This document shows positions 36,860 to 46,650 of a DNA stretch of 64,000 nucleotides, one piece after another. Source of the DNA: Candidatus Hydrogenedentota bacterium. GTDB taxonomy: Bacteria > Hydrogenedentota > Hydrogenedentia > Hydrogenedentales > SLHB01. Every line of letters starts with the position of its first letter. The first letter of the stretch is position 1. Where the stretch lies: assembly GCA_963668025.2 (NCBI GenBank), contig CAXXTH010000019.1:1-64000 (forward strand). Direction: 5' to 3'. A model generated the notes under the pieces. That model worked only from the letters and a program-made list of their open reading frames with translations, was not told where the DNA came from and did not search any database. Both the position numbers and the translations under genes were made by a program.

Positions 36860-38261
36860 GTGTGCCAAGCATGGCGCGGATCTAAGGGGTGTAAGTCCCC
36901 TGCAAGCCCTGATGGTGGGAATTGCTAGCCAAGAGCAAGGGCGTCGCCGCGAGGCGGGGTCTGGAGGAAGCAGGAGGCAAAAGTCGGACTCGACGCACAG
37001 AAACCGGATAGAAGGCCGGGGTGGCGGGGCAAGCCAGCAATGGATGGCGACGCCCAATAACCATTCGGACACACACCTTGGTAAATCCGGCGAGGCCCGG
37101 CGGAAAGAGGCGCGTCTTACCTTGGGAGACCTGTTCATCTGTCTGGAAGAGCCAGACTAGCGGGATGGCAACATGTCGCGAGGGGTGGGCAGGAGTCAGC
37201 CGAGGCCATAATACCCGCAAGGGGAAGGGCCGAATCGATCATTCAAGGAGCAGCATTGAACGTCTCGTGGGATAGGGAGCGGCAGGAAGTAGCAGGTTGC
37301 CAGATGGAGTTCCCACTGGAGTCGGCTTGCCACGGCGCAATCGGAGAAGGCGGAACCGAATCGGATGCGTTCGAGGCGCGGCAACTATCCCCGGCGGCGA
37401 ACAAGAGGCGAGCCTTGACGCAAGACTTGATGGAACGGGTCGCGAGTCTTGCGAACCTGACGGAAGCGGTACGCCGGGTGCAACGGAACAAAGGCGCGGC
37501 GGGTGCGGACGTCATGAGCGTACGCGACCTGAAGCGTTGGTTTCCGGAACACTGGCGGGGACTGCAAGAGGAACTGACGGCAGGGCGCTACCGTCCCCAA
37601 CCGGTGTTGGGAGTGCAAATCCCCAAGCCGGGCGGGGGGATGCGGCAACTGGGCATTCCGACGGTGGTGGACCGAGTCGTGCAACAAGCGCTCTTGCAGG
37701 CTCTCGAACCGCTTCTAGACCCGGCCTTCTCGGAAAGCAGTTATGGATTTCGTCCAAGGCACAATGCACATCAGGCGCTGCGGCAAGCCAGCACGTACGT
37801 AAGCGAAGGCCGCTGCATTGTTGTGGACATGGACCTGGAAAAATTCTTCGACCGGGTCAACCACGACATCCTGATGGCGCGCGTGGCGCGGCACGTGTCA
37901 GACAAACGCGTACTCCGACTCATCCGCTGGTTTCTTGAAGTCGGCATGATGCAGAACGGCGTATGCATCGAACGATACGAAGGGACCCCGCAAGGCGGTC
38001 CTCTATCGCCGCTGCTGGCCAACCTGCTCTTGGACGACCTGGACAAGGAGTTGGAGAAACGAGGGCATCGTTTTTGCCGCTATGCGGACGACTGCAACAT
38101 TTACGTGCAGACGATACGCGCGGGAGAACGTGTCCTGACATCGGTCACGCAGTTCCTTGAGGGGAAACTGAAACTACGGGTGAACCGCGAGAAGAGCGCG
38201 GTGGCGTTCGTGGGAGAGCGGAAATTTTTGGGTTATCGCTTGCTGGGTGGGGGGCGATTGG

Positions 38262-39607
38262 CATAAGCGCTAACCTTATTTGATGTCTCCTGACGAATCT
38301 TCTATACTGGGTGCATGGAAGCAGCGTGGAATGAGAATTGGCAGTGTTTACAGCGTTTTCTCCCTGCTGGATGGGAGGACAAGGCTCGTGAATTGGGCGC
38401 GTGGCACCGCAAGCCTCGTTCTATATCGTCGACGGAATCGCTCCTGCGCTTGCTGTTGATCCATTTGGCGGATGGGTGTTCTCTGCGTGAGGCTGTCGTT
38501 CGTGCTCGAGAAGGGAATGTGGCGTCCGTGTCGGATGTGGCACTTCTTAAGCGGTTGCGTGCTTCGGGGGAATGGCTGCGGTGGATGGCCGTAGAGATAC
38601 TTCAACGTCGCGCGGGACCGTGCGTTCGGCCTGCATGGCTGGAGTATTACCGTGTTCGCGTCGTGGATGCGAGCGTTGTCTGCGAACCGGGAAGCACGGG
38701 AACGGACTGGCGCGTTCACTACAGCCTATGTTTATACGGTCTTCAATGCGATGAGTTTCATATTACCGGCCCGAAGGTTGGAGAGAGTTTCGCGCGATTC
38801 CGAGTCTCGCCTGGCGACCTATTGCTCGGAGATCGTGCTTATGGGCATCTCAAAGGTTTTCGTTATGTGCTCGGCCATAACGGGAACTTTCTGACGCGTC
38901 TTAAGAATAAAGCCTTCAGTCTTCGGAATGGCGCAGGGAACACCTGTCCACTGGCTGGATTGGTGGCGTCTCTAGAGGTAGGGGAAGTGGGTGATTGGGC
39001 CCTGATTGGCCAGGCAAAGGGGCAGGAGGAGCTGGCGCTACGGATCTGTGCGCTGCGTTTGAGCGAGGAAGCCGCCGCGCAAAGCATCCGCCGGGCGAAG
39101 AAAGAGCTAAGCAAGAAGCAACGGAGTCTGGATCCCGAAACGCTTGTGCTGCATCGCTACGTCATACTGGCCACATCCTTGCCGGATTCAATATCGCCGC
39201 ACCAGGTTATCGAGTTGTACCGGGCGCGCTGGCAGGTGGAGTTGGCCTTCAAACGGATGAAGTCGATTATGGGATTGGGACACTTGCCAAAGGAAGACGA
39301 GGAGTCGGCCAAGGCTTGGCTCCACGGCAAAATGCTTGTCTCCTGCCTTGCCCAGGCCATTGTTGATGAGGGGCGCTTTTTTTCCCCCTGGGGATATCCA
39401 CTGTGACGATATCTACCGCGAGGCCTCCTTGTGGCGCGAACTCTCTTTCGCCTTGCACCTCCTTCGCCAAGCGGTCAATCCGACGCTTGGATTATCCGAA
39501 TGCATCAGCCAGTGGCGGGAAATCGCGAGAGATCTGGCAGAGCCCCCAAGGAAGCGAATGCAACAGTTGCGTGGTTTGATGGAGGCAATATAAGGTTAGC
39601 GCTTATG
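38262..39607 (+). mobile_element. IS4-family insertion sequence, 1346 bp
   Basis: Perfect 18-bp IRs CATAAGCGCTAACCTTAT; perfect 11-bp TSD GGGGCGATTGG (38251-38261, 39608-39618). Confidence 0.95.
38315..39406 (+). CDS. IS4-family DDE transposase
   Basis: VVDAS, LGDRAY, YRARWQVELAFKRMKS (YREK motif). Confidence 0.93.
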   Translation: MEAAWNENWQCLQRFLPAGWEDKARELGAWHRKPRSISSTESLLRLLLIHLADGCSLREAVVRAREGNVASVSDVALLKRLRASGEWLRWMAVEILQRRAGPCVRPAWLEYYRVRVVDASVVCEPGSTGTDWRVHYSLCLYGLQCDEFHITGPKVGESFARFRVSPGDLLLGDRAYGHLKGFRYVLGHNGNFLTRLKNKAFSLRNGAGNTCPLAGLVASLEVGEVGDWALIGQAKGQEELALRICALRLSEEAAAQSIRRAKKELSKKQRSLDPETLVLHRYVILATSLPDSISPHQVIELYRARWQVELAFKRMKSIMGLGHLPKEDEESAKAWLHGKMLVSCLAQAIVDEGRFFSPWGYPL

Positions 39608-40156
39608 GGGGCGATTGGGCATCGCGCCCAAGAGCCTCGACCGGGCGAAAGACCGCATCCGCGACATCACGCGACGCAACCGCGGCGACGCCAAAGTGCG
39701 CCAGATGATTGAGGAGCTCAACAGCTTCCTGAGCGGCTGGATAACCTACTATCGGTTTGCCGAAGCAAAGGGCCATCTGGAACGCCTCGGGGAATGGATG
39801 CGGCGCAAACTGCGCTGCGTCATCCTCAAACGCCTCAAGCGCACGAAAACCATAGCGGACTTCCTTAGAAAACTAGGCGTGCCGCAATTTCAGGCGTGGA
39901 TACTCGCAGGGTCCGGGAAGGGCTGGTGGCGCAAAGCGGGGAGTCCTCCCGCGCAACACGCCATGGACAAACAATGGTTCGCGAAACAAAAACTGATAGA
40001 CCCGGTTCAACGGTACGAAACGTTCAAAAATGACCGAAACCGCCGTGGTACCGAGCAGGTATGCCCGGTGGTGTGAGAGGGGGGGACCGTGAGGAACCCC
40101 CCTACTCGATTTTTGAGCTGGCCCCAGGGTCATTGCATTAAAAACAACCTCGGATT

Positions 40157-40221
40157 GGCCTCAAGAGGCGCAAAAAACGCAAAATCAATTCATTTTTGTG
40201 TCTTTTGCGCCTTTTGTGGCT
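40157..40221. repeat. Palindromic intergenic repeat (family C)
   Basis: GGCCTCAAGAGGCGCAAAAAACGCAAAA...TTTTGTGTCTTTTGCGCCTTTTGTGGCT; similar to 55163-55231. Confidence 0.75.
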
Positions 40222-40286
40222 CATTATCAGGAAATGTCAGGAAATGTGGGGAGTGGCGTTTCAGATAGGTTTGGACAAACAAACAC

Positions 40287-41815
40287 GTAACACTTTAGCC
40301 GTCTGGCGCAACTATAAGTAGCGTTTCGGTATAATATAGTTACAAGATGTTGTGGTTTTGGGCCAAGACGCCATGATGACGGCAATAAGTGGCATTCCCA
40401 TTGGGACCGCTGCTCTCGGAGGAGCAAGCCCGTGCAATCTATGCATTGGGCGAAGATGCCGTGGTGTTTGCCCTGTTGGCGCAATCCAAGCTGCTGTCGG
40501 AGCAGCAGGCCGAGGCGGCGTCCACTTCCCACCAAACGCCCTCCACCCCTTCGGGCATGCAGCCAGTTTACGGGAAACCCCAGACGCCTGTGCGCGGCAA
40601 GAAAAAGCCGGGACGCAAAATGGGCCACCCCGGCAGCCGCCGCGTGCCGCCCGAGCGCGTCGACCGGCGCGAAACACACCGCGCCAAGGTGTGTCCCGAC
40701 TGCGGCGGGCCGCTGGACCGCTGCACGGAAACCCGCACGCGTTACACTGAAGACATCCCCGAAGACATCCGCTCGGAAGTCACCGAACATACCATTCACC
40801 GCGATTGGTGTCCGCGATGCAAGAAGAAAGTCGAACCGGTCGTAACGGCGGCTTTGCCAGGCGCGACCCTGGGCAACCGGGTGCTCGTCCTCAGCGCGTG
40901 GCTGCACTATATGTTGGGCAACACGCTCTCGCAAATCGTGGAGGTCTTCGATTTCCACCTGCTTTTCCAGGTCACGCCGGGCGGGCTGCTGCACATGTGG
41001 CGACGGCTGGCGGAGGTTCTCTTGCCTTGGTACGAGGCCATTCACCAAGAGGCGCTGAACTCGGCGGTGCTCAACGCCGACGAGACCGGCTGGCGCGTGA
41101 ATGGCAAGACCCGATGGCTGTGGTGTTTCGCCACCAAAGGGCTGAGCTTTTTCTTGATCGACCATTCGCGGGGGAGTCCGGCGCTGCAGCAATTCTTCAC
41201 GCAGGAGTTCGCTGGAACGCTGGTCGCCGACTTCTGGGCCGCGTACAACGCCGTGGCGTGCGCCGCCCGGCAGAAGTGCCTGGTGCATCTGTTGCGTGAA
41301 CTCGAACACGTGGAGAAATACAAGTCGCCCAGTCCGGCCTGGCCCGCCTTCGCCAAGAAGCTGCGCCGCCTGGTTGGCGACGCCATCCGCCTGCGGCGGC
41401 GGCGCGGCGAACTCGAACCGGAGGCGTACGAATCGCGCCGTGGCTGCATTGTCCGGCGCTTGCGGGAATTGTGCGATACGCCGTGGGAAGACGCCAACGC
41501 CAAGCGCCTCATCAAGCGGCTGCGCCGACACCAGGATGAACTCTTCACTTTTCTCGGCCAATCCGATGTTCCCTTCGACAACAACCTGGCGGAACGCTCC
41601 ATCCGTCCCGCCGTGATCCTGCGCAAGAACAGTTACTGCAACCGCAGCGACCAAGGCGCCGCCATACAAGCGGTGCTCATGAGCGTCTTTTTTACCCTGA
41701 AAAAGCGCGGGCAAAATCCCGTCAGCACCGTCTGCGCCGCCCTCGTCCACTACCTCAAGACCGGCCAATTGCCTCCCCTGCCACCGGAAAACCTGCCAAT
41801 CGGCTAAAGTGTTAC
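40287..41815 (+). mobile_element. IS66-family element, single-ORF (ISBst12-like), 1529 bp
   Basis: Perfect 15-bp IRs GTAACACTTTAGCCG; flanks ACAAACAC/TAAAACAC match at only 6 of 8 positions. Confidence 0.92.
40389..41807 (+). CDS. IS66 transposase TnpC
   Basis: TPSTPS...KKPG.K.GHPG, CPDCG/CPRC zinc finger, ADETGW, VADFWAAY, QKCLVHLLRE, DNNLAERSIRP. Confidence 0.94.
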   Translation: MAFPLGPLLSEEQARAIYALGEDAVVFALLAQSKLLSEQQAEAASTSHQTPSTPSGMQPVYGKPQTPVRGKKKPGRKMGHPGSRRVPPERVDRRETHRAKVCPDCGGPLDRCTETRTRYTEDIPEDIRSEVTEHTIHRDWCPRCKKKVEPVVTAALPGATLGNRVLVLSAWLHYMLGNTLSQIVEVFDFHLLFQVTPGGLLHMWRRLAEVLLPWYEAIHQEALNSAVLNADETGWRVNGKTRWLWCFATKGLSFFLIDHSRGSPALQQFFTQEFAGTLVADFWAAYNAVACAARQKCLVHLLRELEHVEKYKSPSPAWPAFAKKLRRLVGDAIRLRRRRGELEPEAYESRRGCIVRRLRELCDTPWEDANAKRLIKRLRRHQDELFTFLGQSDVPFDNNLAERSIRPAVILRKNSYCNRSDQGAAIQAVLMSVFFTLKKRGQNPVSTVCAALVHYLKTGQLPPLPPENLPIG

Positions 41816-41889
41816 TAAAACACAAATACTCTGACGAGAGGAAAAAGCACTGCTTTTTTAATGTGATCGTCCTGGAGCTGGCCCAAATT

Positions 41890-41918
41890 TTGTGCATTCC
41901 TGCTCCCTCTGATACATT
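41890..41918 (+). promoter_or_regulatory. Putative sigma70 promoter of the IS1634-like gene
   Basis: TTGTGC-N17-TACATT with extended TG, followed by GGAGGAGG RBS. Confidence 0.5.
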
Positions 41919-41935
41919 GAAATGGAGGAGGGGGC

Positions 41936-43531
41936 ATGTTTGTACGAACGAAAAAACGCGGCGACAGCAGTTATGTATCGATTGTCAAGAACCAGCGGGT
42001 GGATGGGAAAATAATCCAAACCGTCATTGCTTCACTGGGGCGGCTGGATCACCTGGGGGTATCCGGCGAACTGGAAGGGCTATACCGTTCACTTCAACGC
42101 TTCATAGAAAATCCAGAAGCCCAGGAAGCGCCTGCATCCTCCGCAAAAGAGGCTCCCCCCATAACGGTATTGGACGCACATTCCACAGGAGTCCAACATG
42201 CGTTTGCCGCGTTATGGCGCGGCGCCGGTTTGGACCGCTTGTTTGACGGGAAGGCCCCGAACCAGGCGGGGCTGCCTGCGGCATTTGGACAGGCCGTATA
42301 CGCCCACACGCGGGATCAGTTTACCGGAGAACAACACATCCTTCATGACCTCGTGGAGCGCTACCGCGCCCTGGGGGCGCTTGGCCGTCCCATCGCCCAG
42401 CCAAGCGAGCGCGCGAATGGGCTTCCTCCCGGCGTCAAAGCCGCCAGCGCCTCCGTGCAGTATGTTCATGAAACATTGGAGCAAGCATTTCTTCAACATC
42501 GAGTTTCGCAACAGCCAGACGGCATGCGAGGCGTTTTTTTATGTCCCGTTCCGCTGGCGCTGGAAAATACGGGAACTGCTCATCCAAATGGACGCCTTGC
42601 GCTCGTACTGGCGTTTGATTTGGACGGCTGGCCCTTGGGCGTACGGGCGTATCCTGGGGGCGCTACGCTGCGGCGCGACCTGGAAGGTTTCGCACGCCAT
42701 TTCCAACAAGCATATGGCGCACGCCAGATCGGCCTGGCCGAAGCGGAGCCTGGCTATGGGCTTGGGCCATCTTTAACAGGCGGCGCATACATCCATGCGG
42801 AGCCGTTGCGCCATTCTCATGCTCCAAACCGGGGCGGGCTGGCCCGGCTCACTTCCTTCACCTCGCTGGCCAGTGCGCCATTTGGCGCACACTGGGCCTG
42901 GGCGGAGAGGATTTCAGAAGGAAACCGCTGGCTTCTTGCCTTTGATGAAACGCTTGCCGCACAAGAGGCGCTTGAACGCCAGGCGAACATGGCGGCGCTT
43001 CAAGACGCCTTGGATGCAGGCGATACGGCGTTCCTCCTCCATCCCCGGCGCAGGCCATGGGTGCGCGCTCATGGGACGCGCGTTTCCATCGATACGGAGC
43101 GCATGGCGGAAGATGTATTATATGACGGCAAGTGGCTTGTGCAAGGGCCGGAGGACTGGCCGGTCCGTGATGTTCAAACAGGTTTTATATGTGCATGCGA
43201 AGCGGCAGCGTTGTCAGCCCGCTTGTCGGCCTGCATGGGAAGGCATGCTTTGCTTCATGGCAGCGGCGCGGTGATACGCGGACAGGCCTTTTGCGCCTTT
43301 CTTGCGCTGTTCCTGCGCCGGGAGTTGATGGGCAAGCTTGCGAGCCAGGGCAATACAATGGCCTGGAATGAAGTGCGAGAAGCCTTGGACTCCCTAATCG
43401 AGGCAGGCGTGGTCCAGCAGGATCGCCGCAGGGTGCTCTATTCGGAACCAAACGCCATGGCGCTCGATGCCCTCAAGGCTTGCGGCGCGGCATGGCCTTT
43501 ACCGGAAGCAGCAGCGCTGGGGAGAACCTAG
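41936..43531 (+). CDS. IS1634-transposase-derived protein, apparently lacking the DDE triad
   Basis: MFVRTKK...YVSIV.NQRVDGKIIQTVIASLGRLD, YDGKW and IRGQAFCAFLALFLRREL are IS1634-like; the catalytic motifs are replaced. Confidence 0.8.
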   Translation: MFVRTKKRGDSSYVSIVKNQRVDGKIIQTVIASLGRLDHLGVSGELEGLYRSLQRFIENPEAQEAPASSAKEAPPITVLDAHSTGVQHAFAALWRGAGLDRLFDGKAPNQAGLPAAFGQAVYAHTRDQFTGEQHILHDLVERYRALGALGRPIAQPSERANGLPPGVKAASASVQYVHETLEQAFLQHRVSQQPDGMRGVFLCPVPLALENTGTAHPNGRLALVLAFDLDGWPLGVRAYPGGATLRRDLEGFARHFQQAYGARQIGLAEAEPGYGLGPSLTGGAYIHAEPLRHSHAPNRGGLARLTSFTSLASAPFGAHWAWAERISEGNRWLLAFDETLAAQEALERQANMAALQDALDAGDTAFLLHPRRRPWVRAHGTRVSIDTERMAEDVLYDGKWLVQGPEDWPVRDVQTGFICACEAAALSARLSACMGRHALLHGSGAVIRGQAFCAFLALFLRRELMGKLASQGNTMAWNEVREALDSLIEAGVVQQDRRRVLYSEPNAMALDALKACGAAWPLPEAAALGRT

Positions 43532-43546
43532 CCATTTCAGGAAGGG

Positions 43547-44563
43547 GTGACGCACATGACCAACCGTGAACGGGTGATTGCCAGCCTCCGGCATGAACAG
43601 CCGGATCGCACGCCATACCATATCGAGTTAACCTTCAAGGCGCGGGAACGGCTTATCGCTCATCCCAAAGGCCCCGAAGCCCTGGAGCGCCTCAGCAACT
43701 GCTGCTACAAACTCTCGACGGAAATACCAGGCCAGGCATGGCGGGAAGTGCGCCCGGATATCTGGGAAGACCAGTTCGGCGTGCGGTGGAACCGCTCGGT
43801 CGATAAAGATATCGGCGTTGTGTGCAACCAGGTGGTCCGCGAAGACAACTTGGAATCCTATGTGTTTCCTGATCCCCATGATGCGGAGCGCTGGGAGTGG
43901 TATCCAGACGCCATCGCTGTCAGCGCTGGGCGTTTCGTGCTGCCGGAACTGGGCTTCAGCCTGTTCGAGCGGGCGTGGACGCTGTATGGCATGGAAAACC
44001 TGCTGGTCGCCATGGCGTCGAATCCTTCCTTCGCCCATAAGCTCTTCGACCGTATTCTCGAATACAACCTGGCCATTATCGGGCATGCCTGCTCGTACGC
44101 TATTGACGGCATGGAGTTTGGCGATGACTGGGGTTCGCAAAGCGGCCTCATCATGGGCGCGGAGCTTTGGCGTGAATTCATCGGCCCCCGCGTGCGCCAG
44201 ATGTACCAGGCGGTGCATGCGCACGGCAAATACGTCTTCATCCATAGCTGCGGCAAAGTGGATGAATTGTTCTCCGACCTGATCGAATCCGGGCTGGACT
44301 GCTTCAATCCCTTCCAGCCGGAAGTCATGGACCCATTCGAGATGAAACGGCGGTACGGCGCGCGCCTGAGTTTCTGGGGCGGCGTCAGCACCCAGCGCAC
44401 GCTCCCCTATGCCTCGGAAGAAGCGGTCAAAGAAGAAGTGCGGCGTTTGCTGCGCGAGGTAGGCAAAGACGGCGGCTACATCGCCGCACCTGCCCACGCG
44501 GCACCCGGCGACGCCAAACCGGAAAATATTATCGCCATGATCGAAGCGCTGACGGAGCAATGA
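43547..44563 (+). CDS. Uroporphyrinogen decarboxylase / MtaA-CmuA methyltransferase superfamily protein
   Basis: MTNRERV..SL.HEQPDR.P, GDDWG.Q, FIHSCG, FWGGVSTQ, GGYIAAPAH. Confidence 0.85.
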   Translation: MTHMTNRERVIASLRHEQPDRTPYHIELTFKARERLIAHPKGPEALERLSNCCYKLSTEIPGQAWREVRPDIWEDQFGVRWNRSVDKDIGVVCNQVVREDNLESYVFPDPHDAERWEWYPDAIAVSAGRFVLPELGFSLFERAWTLYGMENLLVAMASNPSFAHKLFDRILEYNLAIIGHACSYAIDGMEFGDDWGSQSGLIMGAELWREFIGPRVRQMYQAVHAHGKYVFIHSCGKVDELFSDLIESGLDCFNPFQPEVMDPFEMKRRYGARLSFWGGVSTQRTLPYASEEAVKEEVRRLLREVGKDGGYIAAPAHAAPGDAKPENIIAMIEALTEQ

Positions 44564-44566
44564 ATT

Positions 44567-44629
44567 GCAGGGTGGGACTTGCCCAGCCGTTTATAGCGGA
44601 ACGCTACGGTGGGGCAAGCCCCACCCTAC
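44567..44629. repeat. REP-like doublet (family A)
   Basis: GCAGGGTGGGACTTGCCCAGCC ... GGTGGGGCAAGCCCCACCCTAC; the right unit is identical to 59043-59064. Confidence 0.85.
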
Positions 44630-44715
44630 GGGACTTTTACCATAAAAATGAACAATACAAATCACTAGAGCGATTCAAGATTGGATATAACGATGAAAAT
44701 GGATTCTACTTTACC

Positions 44716-44763
44716 GTAGCATGGGCGTCCCGGCCATGCGCATGGGCGGGACGCCCATGCTAC
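44716..44763. repeat. REP-like doublet (family B)
   Basis: GTAGCATGGGCGTCCCGGCCATG-cg-CATGGGCGGGACGCCCATGCTAC; GTAG tetranucleotide plus hairpin. Confidence 0.85.
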
Positions 44764-44811
44764 ATCGCCTGAAATCTTCTTCGGACTGTACGGGTCTTAA
44801 CAGGAAAACTT

Positions 44812-46650
44812 ATGCACTATCTAGCTATAGACGGCGGCAGCACGGCCACCCGGGCCGGGCTGTATTCGGAATCCGTGGAATTGCTCACGGAAGCCGAAGG
44901 GCCGCCCAGCAATCCGCTGGCGTACGGCGCTGATGCCTGTATCGAGGTAATCCGCGAATTGGCGGCTCAACTGGGTGTGCTAGCCAGTCCACATCCGCTA
45001 CGCGTGGCGGCGGGTATCTCCGGGGCGTCGAAGCCCTCGATACGCGACGCCCTCGCGCCGGTGTTATGCGCCGCATTACATGCGGATTGGGCCGTCGTGA
45101 CGGATGATTTGCGGCCTATTTTGTACGCCAATGTAGGGGAAGGCCCAGGAGCCGTCGTGGTGGCGGGCACGGGTTCGAGCGTGGTAGCCCAAGCGGCAGG
45201 CGGCCAGACGCTTCTCGCCGGTGGGCGCGGGGCGGTTTTTGGCGATGATGGCGGGGCCTACGCCTTGGCGGTGGCCGGTTTGCGCGCCGCCGCGGACGCC
45301 ATAGATGGTATAGGGCCAAATACGGCGCTGGCGGCTGCATTGCTGGCGGGAGCGAAACTCGCCCAGTTCTCGGAATTGCCCGCGTGGACGTTGAACGCAT
45401 CAAAACGGGAAATCGCATCCCTTGCGCGAGTGGTGTTGGATTGCGCGTCGCAAGGCGATGCGCTGGCTAAACAGTGCGCCGATGAACAAGCGGAGCGCCT
45501 CGCCGCACAAGCAGCCGCCGCGCACCGGCGGCTGGCATTGCCGCCAAACACGCCTTTTTTACTACATGGCGGGCTTTTCGAGCATGCGCCCGAATACCGG
45601 GATGCTTTCACGCATGCGCTCGAACGGCTGATGCCAAACGCGGCCATCCGCGTTCCTGGCTTGCGCGGCCATCGCGCGGCAGCCGAACTGGCGCGGACAG
45701 CAGAATTGCCCGGCTGGTTCCTGGGCAGCGCGGCGCGGCGCGGTGATCTGCCCGAGAAGAGCGAACTGCCGCCCACGGAAATGCGCGCCACTAGCCATCC
45801 GCCACTCGACCGGTTAAGCGCGTTGGAAATCGTCCATGCGATGAACCGGGAAGACCACCGGGCCGTCGAGGCTGTCGCGCATGAAGCAAACATCATTGCA
45901 AAAGTCATCGAGCGCGTGGCGGCGGCGTTTCGCGCGGGTGGGCGGCTCATCTATATGGGTGCGGGCACCAGTGGGCGGCTGGGCGTGCTGGACGCATCGG
46001 AATGCCCGCCCACGTTCGGCGTGCCGCCGGAACTGGTCATCGGCATGATCGCCGGGGGCGACAACGCCTTGCGAAAGAGCATAGAAGGCGCGGAGGATAA
46101 TCCCGCTGAAGCGGTGGCGTCCATCGAAGCTTTATCGCCGCCCATCGGCCCGAACGATGTGCTGGTAGGCATCGCCGCCTCGGGCACGACGCCTTATGTC
46201 CTTGGCGCATTGGCGTATGCGGAGGCGCGTGGCGCGGAGCCGGTGCTTTTGTGCTGCAATCCCGCACAGCGGGGTGCGGCGCGGATGGTTATCGCCCTCG
46301 ATACGGGCCCAGAAGCTCTCACCGGCTCGACGCGCCTCAAAGCAGGCACCGCCACGAAACTGGTATTGAACATGATTACGACGGGAGCTATGGCGCGTTC
46401 CGGCTACATATATGAAGGCTTGATGGTGCGGGTGCGCCCTGTGAACGCGAAGCTGCGCCAACGTGCAGCCCGGATCACCGCCACACTGGCAGGCATGGAC
46501 GAAGAAACCGCTGGCGCATTGCTCGAACGTGCGGACGGCGAGATTGGCGTTGCGGTGCTCATGGCCCTGCGGAGATTGTCCGTGGAGGATGCCACGGAGC
46601 GCTTCGCCCGATGCGGCTATGACCTTCGCGCCGCACTGGATGTTTTGTAA
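44812..46650 (+). CDS. murQ: Fusion of BadF-type amino-sugar kinase (MurK/NAGK-like) and MurNAc-6-P etherase MurQ
   Basis: IDGGST.T, AGTGS, GG.G..FGDDGG (kinase); GAGTSGRLGVLDASECPPTFG, AASGTTPYV, GSTRLKAGTA (MurQ). Confidence 0.9.
   Translation: MHYLAIDGGSTATRAGLYSESVELLTEAEGPPSNPLAYGADACIEVIRELAAQLGVLASPHPLRVAAGISGASKPSIRDALAPVLCAALHADWAVVTDDLRPILYANVGEGPGAVVVAGTGSSVVAQAAGGQTLLAGGRGAVFGDDGGAYALAVAGLRAAADAIDGIGPNTALAAALLAGAKLAQFSELPAWTLNASKREIASLARVVLDCASQGDALAKQCADEQAERLAAQAAAAHRRLALPPNTPFLLHGGLFEHAPEYRDAFTHALERLMPNAAIRVPGLRGHRAAAELARTAELPGWFLGSAARRGDLPEKSELPPTEMRATSHPPLDRLSALEIVHAMNREDHRAVEAVAHEANIIAKVIERVAAAFRAGGRLIYMGAGTSGRLGVLDASECPPTFGVPPELVIGMIAGGDNALRKSIEGAEDNPAEAVASIEALSPPIGPNDVLVGIAASGTTPYVLGALAYAEARGAEPVLLCCNPAQRGAARMVIALDTGPEALTGSTRLKAGTATKLVLNMITTGAMARSGYIYEGLMVRVRPVNAKLRQRAARITATLAGMDEETAGALLERADGEIGVAVLMALRRLSVEDATERFARCGYDLRAALDVL

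Follow-up and report, generated by a model that had tools for sequence, protein, structure and literature searches.

A full-length, catalytically degenerate IS1634-subfamily transposase homolog in a Candidatus Hydrogenedentota genome: a candidate domesticated transposase

Introduction

Does a transposase gene that appears to have lost both its catalytic residues and its mobility remain open in a bacterial chromosome because its protein is still used, or is it a relic that persists for other reasons? This question is raised by ORF531, an open reading frame (ORF) encoding 531 residues in a stretch of 64,000 nucleotides from a Candidatus Hydrogenedentota bacterium (positions 1 to 64,000 of the forward strand of contig CAXXTH010000019.1, assembly GCA_963668025.2; the whole stretch is hereafter called the window). 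ORF531 is homologous over its full length to transposases of the IS1634 family of insertion sequences (ISs). An initial annotation, made from the nucleotide sequence of the window, regarded it as a candidate domesticated transposase. In the present analysis, ORF531 may be a selectively maintained, non-catalytic and immobile derivative of an IS1634-subfamily transposase that is kept as a protein, a reading for which the case is circumstantial and, in our view, about evenly balanced. The loss of catalysis, the single copy, the absence of IS ends and the non-neutral frame are in line with domestication, whereas no ortholog that would speak for it was found in 134 other genomes of the phylum.

It is well established that eukaryotes have turned DDE transposases into host proteins. 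For bacteria, the unambiguous examples, to our knowledge, come from other enzyme classes, for example the TnpB-derived repressors.

Results

Homology of ORF531 to IS1634-family transposases

The features of the locus are listed in Table 1. ORF531 starts with ATG in frame +2, counted from window base 1, and runs without interruption as initially annotated, while each of the five other frames across the same span contains 7-16 stops. A word-seeded search of 5.8 billion proteins gives 51 homologs, the best of which is 28% identical over 98% of the query. In 46/51 of these homologs, 98% of ORF531 is covered at 22-29% identity, which bears out the colinearity with IS1634 transposases described in the initial annotation. 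PF01609 (DDE_Tnp_1) is present in 50/51. An exhaustive HMMER search of 1.84 billion representatives gives 794 matches at E ≤ 1e-3 and none at E ≤ 1e-30; among the matches listed (the best 150 of the 794), no full-length match exceeds 33% identity. The comparison with one homolog, P0001 (E 1e-53), is colinear from end to end with 28% identity overall, and 34/59 positions are identical in residues 1-59. The N-terminal motif MFVRTKK...LGRLD, as well as YDGKW and IRG..FC.FLAL.LR.EL, is retained in ORF531.

Profile models hardly recognize the protein. No Pfam family matches ORF531 at E ≤ 0.1, the DDE_Tnp_1 model (PF01609) included. The NCBIfam model of the IS1634 family (NF033559) gives 51.3 bits (E 9.1e-14), with the best stretch at residues 305-403, and this score is below the curated cut-off of 100. 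Judging from these scores, the homology is too weak for the curated family models. A search of the ESM Atlas with ORF531 returned IS1634-type clusters only, and a sequence-profile search of the PDB gave only two reductase matches at chance level.

Catalytic residues and predicted fold

The columns of the first catalytic Asp (D1), the second catalytic Asp (D2) and the catalytic Glu (E) were typed in 79 full-length homologs (480-650 residues). All three residues are intact in 69/79, and the remaining 10/79 deviate. In ORF531, the D1 column is occupied by Cys203, where the VFFDTTS of the family reads VFLCPVP, and the E column by Ala424, where LW.VE..FRS reads ACEAAALSAR. The SKDHRPD segment is deleted, and a 16-residue family segment upstream of it (LHRL..PGSDRA..KW) is also missing. 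The D2 region reads LAEAEPGY in ORF531 where the family has VVADRGM. Since the MAFFT placement at the D2 column varies between a gap and Glu271, D2 may be a conservative Glu. The initial annotation described all the catalytic motifs as replaced; this is confirmed at D1, E and the deleted SKDHRPD, but the change of VADRG to LAEAE depends on the alignment. Judging from the alignment as a whole, the catalytic site of ORF531 is lost.

The AlphaFold2 model of ORF531, built on 60 aligned sequences, has a mean predicted local distance difference test score (pLDDT) of 85.5 and a predicted template modeling score (pTM) of 0.80. The top PDB matches of this model in Foldseek are Tn5 transposase chains (E 1.6e-3; template modeling score, 0.30-0.36), followed by the ISCth4 transposase.

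Open frame and regional conservation

Neutral substitution was simulated on ORF531 with its own base composition in 2000 runs per level. At 0.1 substitutions per nt, where 81% identity to the start is left, the frame is open in 28/2000 runs. At 0.25 substitutions per nt (60% identity), it is open in 1/2000, and at ≥0.5 (≤38% identity) in 0/2000. The open frame of ORF531 is incompatible with neutral drift. The GC contents at the first, second and third codon positions are 0.70, 0.50 and 0.60, respectively.

The retention of family-conserved residues is uneven along the protein (chi-square p = 1.4e-7). Conservation in ≥80% of the 69 intact homologs is seen at 192 columns. Of these, ORF531 retains 16/18 in the N-terminal 60 residues, 12/42 in residues 61-195, 11/51 in the D1-D2 core, 11/31 in the insertion domain, 6/27 in the region around E (five of the six being YDGKW) and 16/23 in the C-terminal part. 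Six distant intact members keep 26-41/51 columns in the core and 14-26/27 in the E region, and thus have no core deficit. The initial annotation placed the best conservation in the N-terminal, presumed DNA-binding region. This is indeed observed, and the C-terminus is conserved likewise.

In Tn5 transposase, the N-terminal part binds DNA (the IS ends) and the C-terminal helices mediate dimerization. By analogy, we infer that the N-terminal module of ORF531 binds DNA and that its C-terminal helices, in the module containing IRGQAFCAFLALFLRREL, dimerize. Since neither chance opening of the frame, nor selection on the frame only, nor recent inactivation predicts the retention pattern, the simplest reading of the conserved columns would be that the N- and C-terminal modules have long been under selection since catalysis was lost.

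Copy number and insertion-sequence ends

In the 6.1-Mb assembly, ORF531 is found as a single copy, with one protein match and no second DNA copy. None of 28 inverted-repeat (IR) pairs is terminal, in agreement with the initial statement that no terminal IR is visible, and a check for near-identical copies with IRs gave none. The loci of intact subfamily members come from metagenome-assembled genomes labeled Ignavibacteria, Burkholderiales, Acidobacteria, Syntrophobacterales and Deltaproteobacteria and from two labeled 'uncultured bacterium'. An IR core, CATCTTCTACA(G/C), is present in 6/6 full-length loci of the intact subfamily members. Five left-side cores lie about 160-180 bp upstream of the transposase start, and the right-hand core lies 70-130 bp past the stop in the four loci where it is found. 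Around ORF531, the core CATCTTCTACAG is absent even when up to 2 mismatches are allowed, and it is not enriched genome-wide (20 matches with ≤1 mismatch versus 20.8 expected). Judging from these scans, ORF531 is immobile and its IS ends are gone. Of the original element, only the transposase coding region is left; it borders a cluster of mobile elements upstream and directly adjoins a host gene downstream.

Other IS1634-like lineages with degenerate catalytic sites

Four of the ten best full-length representatives have no Pfam DDE match and have lost at least one catalytic residue. The P0053 type is found at five loci from a metagenome scan (L044-L048; the ORF at L044:16-1668), which represent three variants, two of full length and a third cut off where its contig ends, with 88-90% DNA identity. 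As a separate observation, two variants share an identical sequence over their first 100 bp, with ~10% divergence in the remainder. D1 is Ala (AFLAITA) in 3/3 variants, and E is Lys in both variants reaching that column. Upstream, 1.4 kb of flanking DNA are 82.5% identical and contain an RlpA-like DPBB gene in divergent orientation, and a short downstream stretch is common to the loci across an indel of ~2.1 kb. No IR core (≤1 mismatch) is found at these loci. The ratio of nonsynonymous to synonymous substitution rates (dN/dS) by the Nei-Gojobori method is 0.15 (551 codons), 0.21 and 0.26 (331 codons), and is 0.12-0.37 in the former catalytic core. Judging from these comparisons, purifying selection acts on the P0053 type, an IS1634-like gene that is immobile and catalytically degenerate.

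In the P0054 type, also from metagenomes (P0054, P0218, P0219 and P0220), P0054 has two full-length relatives at 89% and 78% identity, and a third, partial relative is 81% identical. The E column holds Arg in P0054 itself and Arg or Gln in 4/4 members, and SKDHRPD is replaced in the three that reach this segment. The nearest intact proteins are 36-39% identical. P0057, on a 10.6-kb contig, is an orphan like ORF531, with its best match 29% identical. Since purifying selection acts on degenerate relatives whose chromosomal site is conserved, domestication in the IS subfamily of ORF531 is a demonstrated possibility.

The history of these lineages was examined with a tree of 45/80 rows, in which P0116 and three quarters of P0001-P0049 are left out. 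The degenerate state needs at least 4-5 changes on this tree, and every degenerate row is on a long branch. A clade of ORF531, P0053, P0054, P0057, P0063, P0102 and P0129 is not rejected by the approximately unbiased (AU) test and even gives the better tree (log-likelihood difference, +9.87; p-AU, 0.84), where it should be noted that this clade was named after tree inspection and that long branches attract each other. In the column of ORF531 residue 337 (42944-42946), Asn is found in 65/69 intact homologs, and Asp (N337D) is found in 7/10 degenerate homologs with a residue there versus 1/69 intact ones. At position 450, His is found in 69/69 intact homologs, and H450Q in 4/11 degenerate versus 0/69 intact homologs. 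N337D as a clean shared-derived marker of one origin was rejected. Since P0141, nested in another clade, also has Asp, N337D may be the result of convergence rather than of shared ancestry.

Leader and the downstream UroD/MtaA-like gene

The initial annotation described ORF531 as set up like a host gene, with a sigma70-like promoter and a strong ribosome-binding site (RBS). A Shine-Dalgarno-like sequence, GGAGGAGGGGG, is present directly 5' of the ATG at 41936. The 11-mer ATGGAGGAGGG before the ORF531 start is also found 5' of the start codon at the intact IS loci L041 and L042. Since this 11-mer is common to the two intact loci, which represent one lineage, the RBS is most simply explained as a feature that was probably inherited from the IS. 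Shine-Dalgarno-like 4-mers are located 5' of 1333/2950 long ORFs in the genome. The promoter is not borne out: a sigma-70 consensus scan gives 0 sites in 41700-44900, and the presumed TTGTGC-17-TACATT matches the consensus at 3/6 and 4/6 positions. The RBS is therefore present as claimed, but the description as a host-gene set-up is overstated because the RBS is probably inherited and the promoter is weak.

The stop of ORF531 is 15 bp from GTG 43547, an alternative start of the UroD/MtaA-like gene, and 24 bp from ATG 43556, where the alignments of its orthologs begin. The 15-bp spacing initially given thus holds for the GTG but not for the ortholog start. The gene matches Pfam URO-D with E 4.3e-25, and the MtaA/CmuA models stay below cut-off. 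Its family is greatly expanded: this genome has 40 matches, and several relatives have about as many. The gene upstream of the UroD orthologue differs in each of seven relatives, and no window neighbor of the ORF531 locus is found within 1.5 kb of the UroD orthologues. In the 10-kb flanks, only one relative (G013) has PheA-like and UvrD-like genes, ~8 kb away and in the other orientation.

This arrangement suggests another explanation, namely that ORF531 is a relic whose protein has no role and which is kept open for the downstream gene only. Stops and frameshifts would be purged because a 1.6-kb untranslated leader would otherwise cause polarity on the UroD/MtaA-like gene, which would depend on a promoter upstream of ORF531. 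The gap of 15-24 bp to the start of this gene leaves no room for a promoter, and no promoter-like site is found in 41700-44900. In 7/7 relatives, the UroD orthologue also lies 3' of a co-directional ORF, at a gap of -7 to 61 bp. The very long terminal branch and the low codon adaptation of ORF531, given in the Discussion, point in the same direction. Contrarily, selection on the frame only predicts no retention of the N- and C-terminal modules (16/18 and 16/23) against the core (11/51), and it leaves unexplained why amino acids are under purifying selection in the P0053 type. Because the regional conservation pattern is not accounted for, we rate this explanation as rather unlikely.

Distribution in the phylum and the possibility of recent arrival

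The phylum search covered 135 genomes including that of ORF531 (G000), its genus being represented by one genome. Single-copy syntenic orthologs in related genomes, an expectation for a domesticated gene in the initial annotation, were not found (0/40 relatives, 24 of them in the same family; 0/134 other phylum genomes, 53 of them in the same family). Since there is no ortholog in the phylum genomes and nothing above 33% identity among the representatives, dN/dS is not computable for ORF531 itself. Matches to ORF531 are found in four other genomes only, two of them marginal (E 7e-4). The partial matches in G075 and G056 were rejected as orthologs. They are ordinary IS copies, judging from their being contig-end fragments 57-85% identical to intact-type proteins. 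The parent IS type is found in two genomes of the same order, and it was not found in the genome of ORF531 either by protein matches or by the IR core scan.

The locus is contained in 5 sequencing runs from 3 studies, with no RNA run among them. The contigs of runs X1 and X2 are identical to the window. Run X5, from another study, covers 42542-43180 (636 ORF bases) with one difference, while X4 barely covers ORF531. The presence of ORF531 bases in a run of another study suggests that the organism occurs elsewhere, although a single difference is too little divergence for an analysis of selection.

An orphan gene sitting among mobile elements, with the parent IS type in two genomes of the same order, may be a recently arrived or recently inactivated copy from an unsampled, divergent and active IS1634 lineage, whose divergence was mostly gained while it was mobile and which, now without function, is just starting to decay. 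However, all three catalytic motifs are unrecognizable and 40/51 core and 21/27 E-region columns are changed or deleted, which is impossible for an active lineage. Both IS ends are gone: 61 bp are left upstream and 15-24 bp downstream, against about 165-180 and 70-130 bp in intact relatives, and the frame survives merely 0.1 neutral substitutions per nt in only 28/2000 simulated runs. We therefore regard a recent copy as very unlikely.

The genome also contains a bona fide IS1634-family element in four copies (including G000:C19:190392-192035), whose 608-residue transposase scores 337 bits with NF033559. Since it resembles ORF531 over 115 N-terminal residues only, at 29% identity, ORF531 descends from a different subfamily. 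That ORF531 is a non-autonomous yet mobile element moved in trans by such an active relative, which these four copies might provide, is scarcely conceivable in view of its single copy, its lack of terminal repeats and this short, N-terminal resemblance.

Neighboring mobile elements and other features

Upstream of ORF531, the mobile elements are nested (Table 1). The IS66 copy is ~93.6% identical to 12 other copies in the genome and its transposase frame is intact. It splits a dispersed repeat of ~200 bp, 'family C', which has an internal palindrome, about 15-20 genome copies at 75-90% identity, and no Rfam match. 'Family C' was considered as a lost IS end of ORF531 and rejected, as it is a dispersed ~200-bp repeat and the 8 other copies whose right part was matched end 61-77 bp before the ATG position. 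In the group II intron further upstream, the 3' 610 bp of the inserted IS are 100% identical to 10 other places in the genome. This IS is also located within a further copy of that intron on contig C17 (G000:C17:958015-959880), at a different position. Just 3' of the UroD-like gene, a palindromic unit of ~50 bp resembling repetitive extragenic palindromes is found at 44714-44763 (also 44566-44629), with well over 100 copies in the genome. The region 44812-46650 encodes a 612-residue protein in which a BadF/BcrA-type ATPase (sugar-kinase-like) domain is fused to SIS domains (GKRP/MurQ-like).

Table 1. Features in and around ORF531 (window coordinates)
Feature	Position	Strand	Basis or remark
ORF531, full-length catalytically degenerate homolog of IS1634-subfamily (Tn5-like fold) transposases	41936..43531	+	Alignment, AlphaFold2, Foldseek
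N-terminal module, residues 1-55, presumed DNA (IS-end) binding	41936..42100	+	Kept at the level of active members (16/18 columns; 34/59 identity to P0001)
Cys203 codon, D1 column	42542..42544	+	Alignment
Glu271 codon, at or near D2 column	42746..42748	+	Alignment; placement alignment-dependent
Ala424 codon, E column	43205..43207	+	Alignment
C-terminal module, residues 441-521, presumed dimerization	43256..43498	+	16/23 columns
Unique 61-bp leader	41875..41935	+	Shine-Dalgarno-like GGAGGAGGGGG (41924-41934) and weak TTGTGC-17-TACATT (41890-41918)
UroD/MtaA-like gene, likely downstream member of the ORF531 operon	43556..44563	+	Pfam, NCBIfam, ortholog alignments
'Family C', ~200-bp dispersed repeat	41818..41874 (right part), 40115-40286 (left part)		Ends 61 bp before the ORF531 start
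IS66-family element, 472-residue transposase	40287..41817	+	Ends GTAACAC.../...GTGTTAC; inserted in the ~200-bp dispersed repeat
Group II intron	36943..40111	+	D1-D4 RNA (intron domains), reverse transcriptase ORF 37256-38266, maturase end 39615-40076
IS inside the group II intron, DDE_Tnp_1 transposase ORF	38315-39406		Multi-copy stretch ends at ~39610

Discussion

We propose that ORF531 is kept as a protein that no longer catalyzes transposition. The protein would still fold like a Tn5-type transposase, its N-terminal module would bind DNA, and its C-terminal helices would perhaps give a dimer. It would thus act without cutting, as a repressor or a DNA-binding factor. Alternatively, ORF531 may inhibit incoming elements of the parent family, by occupying their ends or by poisoning their transposase. 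Translation probably starts from the inherited Shine-Dalgarno site, and ORF531 is probably co-transcribed with the UroD/MtaA-like gene 24 bp downstream. ORF531 adjoins this gene, whereas the P0053 type adjoins RlpA-like and ParB_N-like ORFs. Since there is no conserved gene partner, a stand-alone role is suggested rather than that of a dedicated operon regulator.

Several observations weigh against a maintained protein. No ortholog is found in the 40 relatives or in the 134 other phylum genomes, and no promoter-like site is found by the sigma-70 scan around the gene. The locus borders a pile of mobile elements, and this genome contains neither a cognate IS nor an IR on which an inhibitor could act. 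The confidence of the AlphaFold2 model leans on the intact homologs in its alignment. The codon adaptation of ORF531 is at the 12th percentile of 1783 long ORFs. In the quick tree of 45/80 rows, ORF531 sits on a terminal branch of 3.58 changes per column, where the median is 0.8; a branch of this length may be due either to a new function or to relaxed constraint.

A wider explanation is that ORF531 belongs to an old, fast-evolving class of non-catalytic IS1634-subfamily proteins, scattered, single-copy and without IS ends, that guard the genome against the parent IS. Such proteins would keep the end-binding and dimerization modules and would occupy the conserved ends (core CATCTTCTACAG) or poison the transposase. 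This would be a protein-based immunity against transposons, in which fast divergence and patchy distribution would be signs of an arms race and not of decay. The seven-protein clade, the recurrent N337D and H450Q, the dN/dS of 0.15-0.26 in the P0053 type, and the parent IS unfound here yet present in the order are consistent with this idea, which we nevertheless consider unlikely.

Comparison with known systems helps to place ORF531, understood as a non-catalytic transposase derivative. It resembles the IS1634-family transposases (NF033559) in length, domain order, homology span (98%) and a predicted fold closest to Tn5, and differs from them in the score below cut-off, the replaced D1 and E, the deleted SKDHRPD, the lack of IRs and the single copy. 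The P0053 and P0054 types are closer counterparts, belonging to the same subfamily at full length, with lost catalytic residues, no Pfam DDE match and shared N337D-type changes. Their close relatives show conservation, whereas ORF531 has no close relatives and is 24-27% identical to both types.

The Tn5 inhibitor protein (Inh) and the KP-type repressors of the P element are non-catalytic transposase forms that block transposition. They are alike ORF531 in being derived from a transposase, lacking catalysis and keeping interaction modules, and provide a working model for it. However, Inh and KP are shortened proteins encoded by elements that are present and active in the same genome, while ORF531 is full-length and lacks IS ends, and no IS or IR of the parent type is found in its genome.

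In eukaryotes, PiggyMac with the Pgm-like proteins and Kat1 are reported to be immobile, single-locus genes derived from DDE transposases and under selection, some partners being catalytically inactive. They are described as having conserved orthologues and shown functions, whereas orthologues of ORF531 are missing. In bacteria, the TldR proteins are nuclease-dead repressors derived from TnpB (PMC13622181). They resemble the case proposed here in that, reportedly, a nuclease of bacterial transposons lost its catalytic activity more than once and was retained to regulate by binding DNA. They differ in belonging to the RuvC/TnpB superfamily and in being RNA-guided; for ORF531, a guide RNA is neither expected nor seen. 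In the portions of the sources that were available, a literature search gave no report of bacterial non-catalytic derivatives of the IS1634 or IS4 type. Transposase domestication as such is known; a bacterial, IS1634-derived form without DDE residues, with one lineage at dN/dS 0.15-0.26, appears to be a new variant of it.

These observations suggest that bacteria may reuse dead transposases as DNA-binding proteins. Should ORF531 instead be open only for the sake of its downstream gene, it would be an example of a long reading frame that outlives its function because polarity is selected against. Should it be functional, together with the P0053 and P0054 types, annotation pipelines hide a class of DNA-binding proteins under the names 'transposase' and 'hypothetical protein', and these proteins would offer a tractable system for studying how bacteria restrain insertion sequences.

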